From Candidatus Hodarchaeota archaeon (GTDB lineage: Archaea > Asgardarchaeota > Heimdallarchaeia > Hodarchaeales > Hodarchaeaceae): a stretch of DNA of 38,034 nucleotides. The stretch spans positions 1 through 38,034 of the forward strand of contig JAEOTC010000062.1 of assembly GCA_016840035.1 (NCBI GenBank), written 5' to 3'. Of the stretch, positions 1,750 through 6,401 are shown in pieces; position 1 is the stretch's first letter; each line of letters begins with the position of its first letter. Made by a program: the position numbers and the translations under genes. The notes below the pieces were generated by a model. It did no database searches. It saw only the letters and a list, made by a program, of their open reading frames with translations, and was not told where the DNA came from.

Positions 1750-3099
1750 CTAGATTACGCCTTGAGCCATCATAGCCCGTGCAACTTTCAGGAATCCTGC
1801 GACATTAGCGCCTACTACTAAGTTTCCTGGTGCACCATATTTATCCGCTGCATCACGAGAAGCTTTGAAAATATTCACCATGATTCCATGAAGACGTTGG
1901 TCAACTTCATCTCTTGTCCAGGCAAGACGAAGGCTATTTTGAGACATCTCAAGACCAGAAGTTGCAACTCCACCTGCATTCGCAGCTTTAGCAGGTCCAA
2001 ATGATACACCAGCCTCTAAGAATATATCAATGGCTTCTAAGGTTGAAGGCATGTTTGCACCCTCACCAACGGCAATGCAACCGTTATCCACTAATTTCTG
2101 GGCATCATTTTTGTCGATTTCATTTTGTGTTGCAGAAGGCATTGCAATGTCACATTTCACTTCCCAAGGTCGTTTTCCAGGAAAGTAATCAACATTGAAT
2201 TTCTCAGCATATTCTTTTATGCGGCCTCGACGATTTTGCTTGAGATCCATAAAGAAATCAAATCGTTCACCTGAAATACCATTAGGATCATAAATAGAAC
2301 CACTAGAATCAGAGAGAGTGACACATTTTCCACCTAGTTGGTTTATTTTCTCAACAGTGTATTGAGCCACATTACCAGAGCCAGAGACGGCTACCATCTT
2401 ATCTTTGAAGTCGGTACCCCGAGCTTTAAGCATTTCTTGAACGAAATAAGTGCAACCATATCCAGTCGCTTCAGGTCGAATGAGAGAACCACCCCAATCT
2501 AGTCCTTTACCAGTAAGCACACCTGTGAAATCGTTTCGAATCTTGCGATATTGGCCAAACAAGAAACCAATTTCACGGCCTCCTACTCCTATGTCACCTG
2601 CGGGGACATCAGTATCAGGCCCAATGTGTCTGAATAATTCCTGCATAAAGGATTGACAGAATCGCATCACTTCATTATCTGATTTACCTTTTGGATCAAA
2701 ATCGCTTCCTCCTTTTCCTCCACCCATAGCAAGTCCTGTAAGCGAGTTTTTGAATACCTGCTCAAACCCTAAGAATTTAATTATGCCTAGGTAAACACTG
2801 GGATGAAAACGTAAACCACCTTTATAGGGCCCTATTGCATTATTAAATTGTACTCGAAATCCACGGTTAACATGGATTTCACCATTATCATCTACCCAAG
2901 GAACTCGGAACATGAATTGCCGTTCAGGTTCGATGATACGTTCAAGGATTTTGAATTTCTTGAATTCTGGGTGCTTGTCAATGGCAGGAACCAAAGAATC
3001 AAGAACTTCTTTTACCGCTTGGTGGAATTCTTTCTCACCAGGGTTTTTTAACACAACTTTATCATATATACTATCAATGTATGACATGGTAATGACCAC
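1750..3099 (-). CDS. gdhA: NADP-specific glutamate dehydrogenase (start may be the ATG at 3087)
   Basis: [46 protein letters not shown] and [11 protein letters not shown] motifs. Confidence 0.97.
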
Positions 3100-3416
3100 T
3101 TTATTGATATCCCATTAGAATATTTGTTTTCATATTGATTCGGGAGAGATGAACCTTTTTCAAGTTTCAATTGTGGAAACCTGTTGTAATTGCCGGAGGA
3201 AGAAGATGATTTAAACAATTTTTTACTTTCTCAGTCTTTTCTGAGAAGTCTCCTAATGCGATTTCATTCACTCTAGGGAGATTTTTCTTCTAGAACTTTG
3301 ATTAAATGGCTAGAATCTACTTATGGTTCTAATTACAATAAAGTTGAGTTTAATATTATGCGAAAGACAGGGAAAGTTTAATTTAAGTGAAAAAACAAGA
3401 ACGCAACTAGATTGCG

Positions 3417-6401
3417 ATGACAATACCATCTCCGAACCATTCAAAGATTGAAGAGATAAAATTCGATTATAAACCGAAATATCAAATTTTCCATGAGTTA
3501 ATGATTAATCGGATTAATAAAGTTCTCCTCGTCTCAAGTTATTATGATAATTTTATACTTGAGGAAGACGGAAGGCTTTCTGATCAAATTTTCGAAGAAT
3601 TTCACAATTTAAATCTCCGAACTCTCCCTGTGATTACACGTGTGGCAACCGCAAGTGAAGCATTAAGCCTTCTTCGAGAACATACTTTTGACCTTGTTAT
3701 CACTATGCGACGATTGGGGGATATTGATCCTTTCTCATTTGGTACACAGGTAAAAGCAATACAGAAAATACCTGTCGTGCTTTTATTAAACAACCCTGCT
3801 GATGTTCCGTATCTCCCAGATATCACATCAGGTGAAGGAATCGATAAGATATTTCTATGGAATGGTGACTCTACAGTCTTTGTAGCTATCATTAAACATC
3901 TTGAAGATAAATTGAATGTTGAGCATGATACGCGTGTAGGACTGGTTCGAGTAATAATTGTTATTGAAGATTCAATCCGTTATTATTCCGTGTTTCTTCC
4001 TATTATCTACAGTGAAATCATGAAACAAACACATCGTTTAATTTCTGAAGGAGTGAATGATTACCACCACCTCTTGCAGATGCGAACCAGACCTAAGATC
4101 TTATTGGCTTCGAATTATGAAGAAGGTATGCAGTATTATACAGAATATCGGAAATCAGTGATTGGGATAATTTCTGATGTTCGTTTCTCTCGTGAGGGAG
4201 TTTTAGATGAATCAGCAGGGTTAAAATTTATCAAATACATCAAAGAAGATAATCCCACATTACCAGTAGCTTTACAATCAAGTAATGAGAAAAATCGTAT
4301 ACGTGCTGAAAAATTAGGAGTGTTTTTTATTAACAAATTCTCTAGGAAATTATTGAAGACACTTCGTGGATTTATGCTTAACTATCTTGGTTTTGGTGAT
4401 TTTAAATTTAAACTAAATGATGGAACAGAAGTTAGTAGAGCAAAAAATATACTAGAGCTTGAACGAGGTATTGCAACTGTGCCTGAGGAATCACTGATTT
4501 ACCATGGTTCGCATGACCACTTTTCTGGTTGGTTAATGAATCGTGGAGAATTTGATATTGCCCAGAGAATTAAACCAAGGAAAGTATCTGAGTTCACACA
4601 ACCTGAAGATTTACGCAACTTTCTACTTTCAGCTGTTAATTCTATAGTGGAAGAAAAGACTGGAGGAGTTATCAATGACTTTTCCAGAGATACTTATCAT
4701 TCCTCAATTCGTTTTACTCGTCTTAGACCGGGTTCTTTAGGGGGGAAGGGACGGGGGATTGCATTTCTACAATTTTTGTTGAATTCGTTTCTCTTGGCAG
4801 ATGAATTATCAGAACAGGTATCTATCCGTATTCCAAAAACTGTGGTCATAGGGACAGATGAGTGGGATCGTTTTATGGATGATAACGAAGAACTACATGA
4901 AATTGCGTTATCTGATACTTCTGACGCTGAAATTAGAAAAAGATTCACTAAAGTGAAACTAGATAAAAAACTTGTTTCTGATCTTCGTCACATCCTTAAA
5001 ACACTTACCGGTCCACTCTCAGTGCGCTCTTCCAGCTTAATGGAGGATTCCCAGTTTCAACCTTTCGCTGGAGTATTCGAAACTTTCTTTTTAAGTAATA
5101 ACCAAGATTTAAAAACACGTGTTGAATTACTTTGCACCGCCATCAAGTTAGTATTTGCTTCTTCTTTCTTGGAACAGGCAAAAAGCTATGCAGAGTCAAC
5201 AGGTCAATCCATAGAGGAGTCTAAGATGGCTGTGGTAATTCAACAGGTAGTTGGTAGAAAAAGACCAAACAATTTGTCCTATCCTTGTTTTTCTGGAGTA
5301 GCTACATCATATAACTATTATCCAGTCTCATACATGAAACCTGATGACCGAATTGTATTTTTAGCCGCTGGATTAGGAAAAACTATTGTAGATGGTGGAT
5401 TAACCTATAGATATTGTCCAAAATTTCCTGAACTCAGCTTTTATTCTACCCAAGATCAGACGTTCGTAAATAGCCAAAAAGACTTTTTTGCCATAGATTT
5501 AGGTTCCAAATCAAAATCTTTCGAAAGAGGGGAAGACTCCTTCCTTATAAATTCAAGTATATTTGATTTAGACCCTATAACTCTAGATCGGATTGCTGAT
5601 ACGTATGATCATAATGATCAAATCATTAGGCCAGGATATAGTGGTGAAGGCGCACCAGTTATTAGTTTTAGCAGACAGTTAAAATATGGTGGATTTCCAT
5701 TTGCCAAACTGTTATCCAAGATTCTTCTATTGGGGGAGCAAACAATGGGAAGTTCGGTTGAGATAGAATTTGCGGGAAATTTTCAATTAGATCCCAAGAA
5801 GAAGACAACATTCTACCTATTACAGATTCGTCCTTATACACAATATGAGGCTATTCTAGAGGAAGAAAAAGAAACTGCTCCAAAGGATCAAGTATTAATA
5901 CGATCAGGTCTTGCCTCTGGTAATAGCATTCTAAAAAACATTCATGATGTAGTTTATATTAAACCCGAGACGTTTGATAAGTTGAAAACTCCAGAGATGG
6001 TTCTAGAAATTGGAGAGATAAATAAACGATTGAAGAAAAAGGACACCCCTTATATTTTGATCGGATTTGGGAGATGGGGAACATTTGATTCATCTTTAGG
6101 TATTCCAGTGAAATGGCACCATATTTCAGGTGCTCACGTCATCATTGAAGCTGGATTAAAGGATTTTCAGGTAGAACATTCTCAAGGGAGTCATTTCTTT
6201 CAAAATATTACCACAGCTAATATAGGCTATCTGTTTATTAATTATAAGTCCGAAGATGATATCATAGATTGGGAGTGGCTTTCAAAACAAGAAGAAATAG
6301 AAGATATGATTTATTCCAAACATATCCGAGTACAAAATCCCTTTTATGTGAGAGTAGATGGGCGTAAACGTAAAGGGTTCATCCTTAAACCAGACGATTG
6401 A
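3417..6401 (+). CDS. Receiver-domain-containing PEP-synthase/PPDK-N (ATP-grasp) family protein
   Basis: Two N-terminal receiver-like folds (FDLVITMR; IISDVRF). PPDK_N motifs GGKGRG, VRSSSLMED, FAGVFET, MAVVIQQVVG, GLGKTIVDG, EIEFA..LLQIRP. C-terminal GRWG...SQGSHFFQN domain. No PEP/pyruvate-binding barrel. Confidence 0.85.
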   Translation: MTIPSPNHSKIEEIKFDYKPKYQIFHELMINRINKVLLVSSYYDNFILEEDGRLSDQIFEEFHNLNLRTLPVITRVATASEALSLLREHTFDLVITMRRLGDIDPFSFGTQVKAIQKIPVVLLLNNPADVPYLPDITSGEGIDKIFLWNGDSTVFVAIIKHLEDKLNVEHDTRVGLVRVIIVIEDSIRYYSVFLPIIYSEIMKQTHRLISEGVNDYHHLLQMRTRPKILLASNYEEGMQYYTEYRKSVIGIISDVRFSREGVLDESAGLKFIKYIKEDNPTLPVALQSSNEKNRIRAEKLGVFFINKFSRKLLKTLRGFMLNYLGFGDFKFKLNDGTEVSRAKNILELERGIATVPEESLIYHGSHDHFSGWLMNRGEFDIAQRIKPRKVSEFTQPEDLRNFLLSAVNSIVEEKTGGVINDFSRDTYHSSIRFTRLRPGSLGGKGRGIAFLQFLLNSFLLADELSEQVSIRIPKTVVIGTDEWDRFMDDNEELHEIALSDTSDAEIRKRFTKVKLDKKLVSDLRHILKTLTGPLSVRSSSLMEDSQFQPFAGVFETFFLSNNQDLKTRVELLCTAIKLVFASSFLEQAKSYAESTGQSIEESKMAVVIQQVVGRKRPNNLSYPCFSGVATSYNYYPVSYMKPDDRIVFLAAGLGKTIVDGGLTYRYCPKFPELSFYSTQDQTFVNSQKDFFAIDLGSKSKSFERGEDSFLINSSIFDLDPITLDRIADTYDHNDQIIRPGYSGEGAPVISFSRQLKYGGFPFAKLLSKILLLGEQTMGSSVEIEFAGNFQLDPKKKTTFYLLQIRPYTQYEAILEEEKETAPKDQVLIRSGLASGNSILKNIHDVVYIKPETFDKLKTPEMVLEIGEINKRLKKKDTPYILIGFGRWGTFDSSLGIPVKWHHISGAHVIIEAGLKDFQVEHSQGSHFFQNITTANIGYLFINYKSEDDIIDWEWLSKQEEIEDMIYSKHIRVQNPFYVRVDGRKRKGFILKPDD

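Follow-up and report, generated by a model that had tools for sequence, protein, structure and literature searches.

What does a dikinase-like protein with two receiver domains do when its gene stands head-to-head with a gene for glutamate dehydrogenase (GDH)? This question is raised by a contig of 38,034 nucleotides from a Candidatus Hodarchaeota archaeon (JAEOTC010000062.1 in assembly GCA_016840035.1; 37% G+C), here referred to as the window. In this window, gdhA is divergently oriented to a gene coding for a 994-amino-acid protein, here named RRDK, which has the ATP-binding half of a pyruvate phosphate dikinase (PPDK). We describe here that RRDK genes adjoin GDH genes in more than 15 bacterial and archaeal phyla, which is why RRDK probably controls GDH. 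With moderate confidence, based on sequence, structural models and analogy, we propose that RRDK is a two-component-gated, ATP-dependent enzyme that would autophosphorylate on a histidine and control GDH post-translationally. The three elements at the center of the locus are as follows.

1750..3099, minus strand: gdhA, NADP-type hexameric GDH (ELFV_dehydrog, 305 bits; ELFV_dehydrog_N, 174 bits; NCBIfam NADP-specific GDH model NF006929, 765 bits against a cut-off of 536)
3100..3416, no strand: spacer between the divergent gdhA and RRDK genes (direct reading of the sequence)
3417..6401, plus strand: RRDK gene, 994 amino acids, a putative receiver-gated half-dikinase (single open frame)

Association of RRDK genes with glutamate dehydrogenase genes

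The best homologues of RRDK are all found in Asgard archaea, with 75-92% amino acid identity in Hodarchaeales and 53-69% in the Heimdall, Thor and Odin groups. Among 201 genomes of the phylum, which include the window's own genome (G000; 4.3 Mb, 87% complete), a full-length RRDK is encoded in nearly all genomes of the same class (9/9, 22/22, 6/7, 1/1, 2/2 and 3/3 by family) and is almost absent from the other Asgard families searched (for example, 0/43 and 0/19). When flanks of 1.5 kb were considered, GDH adjoined RRDK at 24 of 29 Asgard loci, and three arrangements were seen: head-to-head in the window's own genus, tail-to-tail in the largest family and co-directional at one locus. Two of the five loci lacking an adjacent GDH gene are contig ends, and G026 and G074, both complete genomes, have their GDH and RRDK genes approximately 115 kb apart.

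The RRDK family is mostly bacterial, with 997 clusters at 50% identity (E < 1e-30) and at least 597 loci in a species-level genome set, and the full-length bacterial homologues share 31-47% identity with the window protein. The original prediction had placed the same architecture next to gdh in Bacteroidota; this adjacency was indeed found, and it extends far beyond that phylum. Neighborhoods were inspected for the best 80 of the at least 597 loci, a sample that covers Bacteroidota, Ignavibacteria, Cloacimonadota, Gemmatimonadota, Fibrobacterota, Calditrichia, Zixibacteria, Acidobacteriota, Desulfobacterales, Planctomycetota, Bdellovibrionota, Spirochaetes, Actinobacteriota, Clostridia, Thermoplasmatota and others. 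A gdhA-type GDH gene, whose product is 57-90% identical to that of the window, was located no more than 8 kb from RRDK at 46 of the 80 loci. When only the 50 loci with at least 2 kb of sequence on both sides were counted, GDH was the immediate neighbor at 25 and lay within 8 kb at 30, and the expected chance adjacency is approximately 0.1% (one or two GDH genes among ~3000). All four orientations were represented, with GDH upstream and co-directional (17 cases), divergent (7 cases), downstream and co-directional (9 cases) or convergent (6 cases). Upon clustering of 836 flanking open reading frames (ORFs), no family apart from GDH was present at more than 14 loci, and the 14-locus cluster consisted of mixed PAS/GAF sensor proteins. 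GDH is hence the only strongly enriched neighbor of RRDK, and this conserved gene pairing is a direct observation. Furthermore, GDH and RRDK genes alternate in arrays at four loci (L037, L053, L059 and L107), for example as GDH-RRDK-GDH-RRDK-GDH, and each gene is present there in up to three copies, indicating that the two genes duplicate together.

Some further features of the bacterial loci were observed. The arrays in Ignavibacteria and Bacteroidota include a distant GDH paralogue of ~415 amino acids with ~30% identity, and three Bacteroidales/Chlorobiota loci (L068, L084 and L094) have close-set tandem RRDK pairs of ~1150-1200 and ~990 amino acids. PAS or GAF sensor kinases adjoin RRDK at some loci, a glutamine synthetase gene is present at four bacterial loci, and at two bacterial loci without GDH (L080 and L093) an NfnA/NfnB-like pair follows RRDK.

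A sister subfamily of 869-886 amino acids shares the catalytic core described below, including a GPGRW...GTHFF signature, and aligns with RRDK over residues 436-961 with an hhalign probability of 100%. Its N-terminal ~290 residues are unrelated to those of RRDK, are unannotated, contain no receiver and matched only unnamed clusters in a protein atlas. Outside the main RRDK clade, a gene for this subfamily lies directly beside gdhA in three Asgard genomes, co-directionally in G165 and divergently in G159 and G086. In G159 and G030, the gene is also flanked by a GltD/NfnB-like gene (Fer4_20 plus Pyr_redox_2), and in G144 a GATase_2 protein is encoded among its neighbors. Since the receiver-less subfamily is likewise linked to GDH, it is the catalytic core that carries the association, irrespective of the input domain. 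As judged from the gene contents, the conserved neighbors point at the NADPH-dependent 2-oxoglutarate-to-glutamate node. Genes of this subfamily in other Asgard genomes were located as follows.

L112:3234-5885, L113:3672-6281 and L114:2814-5474: sister subfamily genes

Domain anatomy of RRDK

An AlphaFold2 model of the full RRDK protein (pLDDT 90, pTM 0.85) and an alignment of 80 diverse full-length homologues (32-67% identity), to which all residue counts below refer, resolve five modules: a pseudo-receiver, a canonical receiver, a DUF5752-like linker, a PPDK_N ATP-grasp domain and a C-terminal His domain. Their positions, and that of a helix between the receivers, are listed here (PEP, phosphoenolpyruvate).

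3513..3866, plus strand: REC1, pseudo-receiver, ~residues 33-150 (weak Response_reg match, alternating beta/alpha elements in the model, tandem-receiver matches to PleD)
3873..3938, plus strand: connecting helix, residues 153-174 (helix in the model, conservation in the alignment)
3945..4346, plus strand: REC2, canonical receiver, ~residues 177-310 ((beta-alpha)5 pattern in the model, receiver matches in Foldseek)
4347..4721, plus strand: DUF5752-like small beta plus helical domain, ~residues 311-435 (PF19027, 22.9 bits against a cut-off of 23)
4722..5873, plus strand: ATP-grasp domain of PEP synthase/PPDK type, ~residues 436-819 (PPDK_N, PF01326, residues 440-819, 132 bits)
5874..6398, plus strand: predicted swivel-type C-terminal domain, residues 820-994 (model and fold search; predicted phospho-carrier H926 within PSQGSHFFQN)

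In Foldseek searches, the N-terminal half of the model matched the tandem receivers of PleD. REC1 reached 28.6 bits with the Pfam Response_reg model (PF00072) over residues 67-123, which is slightly under the cut-off of 30.2. The position of its acceptor is taken by T96/M97, and an Asp is absent from this column in all 80 homologues (M in 46, T in 10, F in 6 and S in 5). In REC2, the residues expected of a phosphorylatable receiver are well conserved, namely E184 (77/80), D185 (67/80), D254 (71/80), S288 (73/80, plus 3 with T) and K307 (76/80), and the predicted phospho-acceptor pocket is complete. D254 (codon 4176-4178) is the Asp of IISD (4167-4178), within the sequence IISDVR. The helix between the receivers contains E163-D164 (3903-3908), which is invariant in all 80 homologues and thus more strongly conserved than the acceptor Asp itself, as well as the near-invariant residues N167 and D171. 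Neither HisKA nor HATPase_c was matched by Pfam in the 994-amino-acid protein.

The DUF5752-like domain has an invariant W372, and PF19027 is already assigned to many bacterial RRDK homologues in precomputed annotation. We found no published paper on DUF5752. A stand-alone DUF5752 match (33.8 bits), in a 162-amino-acid frame with one in-frame TAG, is present on another contig of the same genome (L118; G000:C182:1603-4920), and the family also has matches in the Sulfolobus acidocaldarius genome that served as a control.

The residues required for catalysis by the ATP-grasp domain, K444, R537-S538-S539, E782, E784, Q803 and R805, are invariant or near-invariant, and both these and the acceptor residues are intact in the window protein. 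The best Foldseek matches of the full model were the rifampin phosphotransferase RPH (PDB 5hv1; E 7e-12), HpeI, PEP synthase (2ols) and PPDK (1kbl). Pfam detected neither PEP-utilizers (PF00391) nor PEP-utilizers_C (PF02896) in RRDK. In the model, the protein ends at residue 994, straight after the His domain, leaving no space for a PEP/pyruvate TIM barrel. Likewise, between the ATP-grasp domain (to ~819) and the His domain (from ~820), there is no substrate-binding domain like that of RPH. RRDK therefore lacks the third, phosphate-receiving domain of PEP synthase, PPDK or RPH.

The C-terminal domain, when folded alone, gave a pLDDT of 90.8, and R886 and E911 are present in 80/80 and H926 in 79/80 homologues. 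H926 (codon 6192-6194) is part of GSHFFQN, encoded by 6186-6206. Pfam at an E value of 10 gave no match to this domain, and Foldseek with the isolated domain gave nothing significant, just weak matches to other swivelling beta/beta/alpha folds. An all-against-all structural search over 48,161 representative chains placed at its top ranks the phospho-His domain of PPDK from maize (residues 384-512; Z 7.2), followed by a PEP-utilizer-like domain, the C-domain of pyruvate kinase from Bacillus stearothermophilus (Z 7.0), by 2fm4, an isolated carrier domain of PPDK (Z 6.9), by the RPH His domain (residues 757-867; Z 6.4) and by three Enzyme I N-domains (Z 5.7). In the model, a strand (906-912) and a loop precede H926, which is the first residue of helix 926-933, similar to the arrangement of the GGxTSH-helix of PPDK. 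By interpolation of the aligned ranges, H926 is ~1-7 residues from what we take to be the catalytic His positions of RPH and PPDK, a distance that is indicative only. Although the Z scores are not decisive alone, the assignment as a phospho-His swivel-type domain is persuasive, because the fold matches agree with each other, a dikinase ATP-grasp domain adjoins and the modelled local geometry fits. RRDK is thus predicted to have both domains needed for ATP-dependent self-phosphorylation on His.

This anatomy agrees with most of what the original prediction had described: a PPDK-type ATP-binding half without the pyruvate barrel, a first receiver lacking and a second receiver having the acceptor Asp, the C-terminal GSHFFQN His motif, and a divergent region of ~320 bp shared with gdhA. 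Its view that RRDK is not a PEP synthase also holds.

Flanking genes, evolution and annotation of the family

The longest gdhA frame opens at a GTG at 3099, but the ATG at 3087 (MSYIDS...) is the more probable start, given that the alignment with relatives begins only at residue 5. The spacer between the two genes measures 317-329 bp. Blocks such as GTTTAAAC.ATTTTTTAC in this spacer are common to the closest relatives only, and no conserved promoter or operator motifs could be called there, since the available sequences are either too close or too diverged. Two further genes flank the pair.

2..1705, plus strand: PAS-PAS sensor histidine-kinase-like gene, truncated at the contig start (Pfam PAS twice, 111 bits; weak HATPase_c, E 0.005)
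6437..7006, plus strand: beta-class carbonic anhydrase (Pro_CA, 72 bits)

The PAS kinase-like gene is convergent with gdhA, and its product may be a candidate cognate kinase for REC2. Pfam found no HisKA domain in this product, in addition to the weak HATPase_c match. PAS-rich ORFs are present at the equivalent position in Hodarchaeales relatives (L032:3606-6275 and L033:1161-5723). The carbonic anhydrase gene begins 35 bp 3' of RRDK, with which it is probably co-transcribed, and this order is kept in the closest relatives only (L003, L004, L005, L007 and L032).

In a midpoint-rooted tree, the Asgard RRDK proteins form one clade, together with a protein from one contig of an Anaerolineales metagenome-assembled genome, and this clade lies inside the bacterial diversity. 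This position fits the remark of Galperin et al. (2018; PMC5847659), who listed "REC with pyruvate phosphate dikinase" as a Bacteroides-like response regulator in three Heimdallarchaeota; their census gives the architecture without a function. The Anaerolineales contig (L034, 3.4 kb) encodes an RRDK that is 50% identical to that of the window. Its place as the sister branch of the Asgard RRDKs points to either mis-binning or a transfer in recent times. A joint transfer of gdhA and RRDK was also considered and is unsupported, as the Asgard GDHs do not nest in the clade of linked bacterial GDHs in the GDH tree. Eukaryotic homologues were absent, except for an obvious contaminant.

Database entries for the family are named "PEP/pyruvate-binding domain-containing protein", "pyruvate, phosphate dikinase" or "DUF5752 family protein", and the labels "PEP synthase" and "PPDK" are incorrect. 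We found no literature that links the RRDK architecture to GDH.

Proposed function and competing explanations

We infer from the anatomy and the gene pairing that RRDK autophosphorylates, that its receiver gates this activity and that GDH is its direct target. In the proposed mechanism, a histidine kinase, here maybe the PAS kinase encoded beside gdhA, would phosphorylate D254 of REC2, which would switch on the ATP-grasp domain. This domain would then use ATP to phosphorylate H926 on the swivel domain, and phospho-His RRDK would act on the neighboring NADP-type GDH, either by phosphoryl transfer or by phosphorylation-dependent binding, as proposed for VadK (see below). An external signal could in this way set the flux through the 2-oxoglutarate/glutamate node. 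A narrower version, which we regard as possible but tentative, is that RRDK represents a new protein kinase class assembled from dikinase parts, in which a two-component signal would lead to the loading of H926 and then to covalent on/off switching of NADP-GDH.

Several observations weigh against control of GDH by a phospho-His form of RRDK. Approximately 40% of the well-flanked loci have no GDH gene within 8 kb. GDH of this type is also frequent in Asgard families that lack RRDK, so RRDK would be an optional add-on that GDH does not need. In addition, 67 linked GDHs could not be told apart from 17 unlinked Asgard GDHs at any column of the alignment, and hence no dedicated modification site is visible in GDH. 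With regard to the swivel domain, Z scores of ~7 are within the range that the search tool gives as common for unrelated best matches. A profile of 56 C-terminal domains found nothing among PDB sequences, and an hhalign comparison of this domain with the PPDK_N protein of the same genome also found nothing.

An alternative that we consider unlikely is that RRDK is itself a small-molecule dikinase that passes the phosphoryl group from phospho-His to a metabolite of the 2-oxoglutarate/glutamate/NADPH node, with the DUF5752-like or receiver region as the acceptor site. All characterized close structural relatives (RPH, PEP synthase, PPDK and HpeI) phosphorylate small molecules. The secondary neighbors, glutamine synthetase and GltD/NfnAB-like proteins, are metabolic enzymes of the same node, and the lack of a GDH-specific signature residue is also in keeping with this idea. 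However, no RRDK domain resembles a known acceptor-binding domain, the core common to the sister subfamily consists of the ATP-grasp and swivel domains only, and no conserved pathway enzymes that could use a phosphorylated product are encoded nearby. Moreover, the paralogue-by-paralogue pairing with GDH genes better fits a protein partner. An ordinary PEP synthase or PPDK, as implied by the database names and the PPDK_N match, is extremely improbable: there is neither a barrel nor room for one, and NCBIfam PEP synthase models score 20-62 bits on RRDK against cut-offs of 598-1063. With the model for the rifampin phosphotransferase type (NF041857), RRDK reaches 31.5 bits, where the cut-off is 999.

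Two other explanations accept the regulatory anatomy and differ in the route or the target, and to each we assign a low probability. The original prediction favored a self-contained phosphorelay, in which the ATP-grasp domain would load H926 and the phosphoryl group would pass to D254 of the same protein, making RRDK a response regulator that senses ATP, needs no kinase and affects GDH through binding. Conserved His and Asp sites within one polypeptide and the lack of a histidine kinase gene near most loci speak for it. As a core function, this relay is weakened by the receiver-less sister subfamily, which keeps the GDH linkage, and by the lower conservation of D254 than of H926, and for these two reasons gating by an external kinase via the receiver fits better. 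Kinases are adjacent at several loci, and orphan response regulators often have distantly encoded kinases. Alternatively, RRDK and gdhA might be merely co-regulated, with RRDK acting on another component of nitrogen or redox metabolism, such as a transporter, glutamine synthetase or GOGAT/Nfn. The well-flanked loci without GDH, the NfnAB/GltD-like neighbors at some of the loci lacking GDH and the distance between the two genes in the complete genomes G026 and G074 are compatible with this, but GDH is by far the dominant neighbor and is immediately adjacent in all four orientations, among them the convergent one, in which a common promoter is impossible, and duplications move as GDH/RRDK pairs. 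Control of GDH by RRDK is our preferred explanation.

The best functional analogy is VadK (Rv1127c), a PPDK from Mycobacterium tuberculosis that has no barrel, autophosphorylates on His422 in an ATP/Mg-dependent manner and pulls down methylcitrate-cycle enzymes (EMBO Rep 2026, PMC13400623). VadK was proposed to regulate metabolic enzymes through direct interaction, with methylcitrate synthase and dehydratase as partners (PMC13400623). Similar to RRDK, it has an ATP-binding domain and a His domain and no PEP/pyruvate barrel; on present data, only this architecture is shared. In contrast to RRDK, VadK is a truncated true PPDK of 50 kDa with a canonical His domain and no receivers, whereas RRDK has a pseudo-receiver, a receiver, a DUF5752-like module, a swivel that is unrecognizable by sequence, and the GDH linkage. 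Orthology of the two proteins is therefore unlikely. RPH, PEP synthase and PPDK are the best structural matches for the ATP-grasp and His domains, and in RPH the His domain is C-terminal, as in RRDK. However, RRDK lacks the rifampin-binding domain of RPH and the barrel of PEP synthase and PPDK, its His motif reads PSQGSHFFQN rather than GGxTSHAA, and it has additional N-terminal signalling domains. PleD (REC-REC-GGDEF) also combines one phosphorylatable and one degenerate receiver ahead of an enzyme domain, but in RRDK the order of the two receivers is reversed and the output is a dikinase-type ATP-grasp domain with a His carrier. Enzyme I-Ntr (PtsP) has a swivel His and, at its N-terminus, a sensory domain; it hands phosphate on to a protein and is connected with nitrogen status, and the Enzyme I N-domain was among the fold matches of the RRDK C-terminal domain. 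Enzyme I is loaded from PEP via a barrel domain, whereas RRDK is predicted to be loaded from ATP via its ATP-grasp domain. No gene for an HPr/NPr-like partner was found among the clustered flanking ORFs.

Enzymatic outputs are known from other response regulators, and regulatory dikinases without a barrel are known as well; what is new here is the link of RRDK to GDH, from which we infer the target. GDH is the meeting point of carbon and nitrogen metabolism, and to our knowledge no dedicated post-translational regulator has been described for the common hexameric GDH of bacteria and archaea. RRDK alone accompanies gdhA consistently in more than 15 phyla, with Heimdallarchaeia among the carriers. 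If RRDK controls GDH, two-component signalling would gain a new class of output and dikinase chemistry a new use, and a widespread misannotation would be corrected, such as false gluconeogenic PEP synthase calls that distort metabolic reconstructions of Asgard archaea. The covalent-switch version might also explain old reports of reversible GDH inactivation in Bacteroides. Should it be true, many anaerobes and the archaeal relatives of eukaryotes would possess a dedicated GDH switch comparable to the adenylylation of glutamine synthetase.

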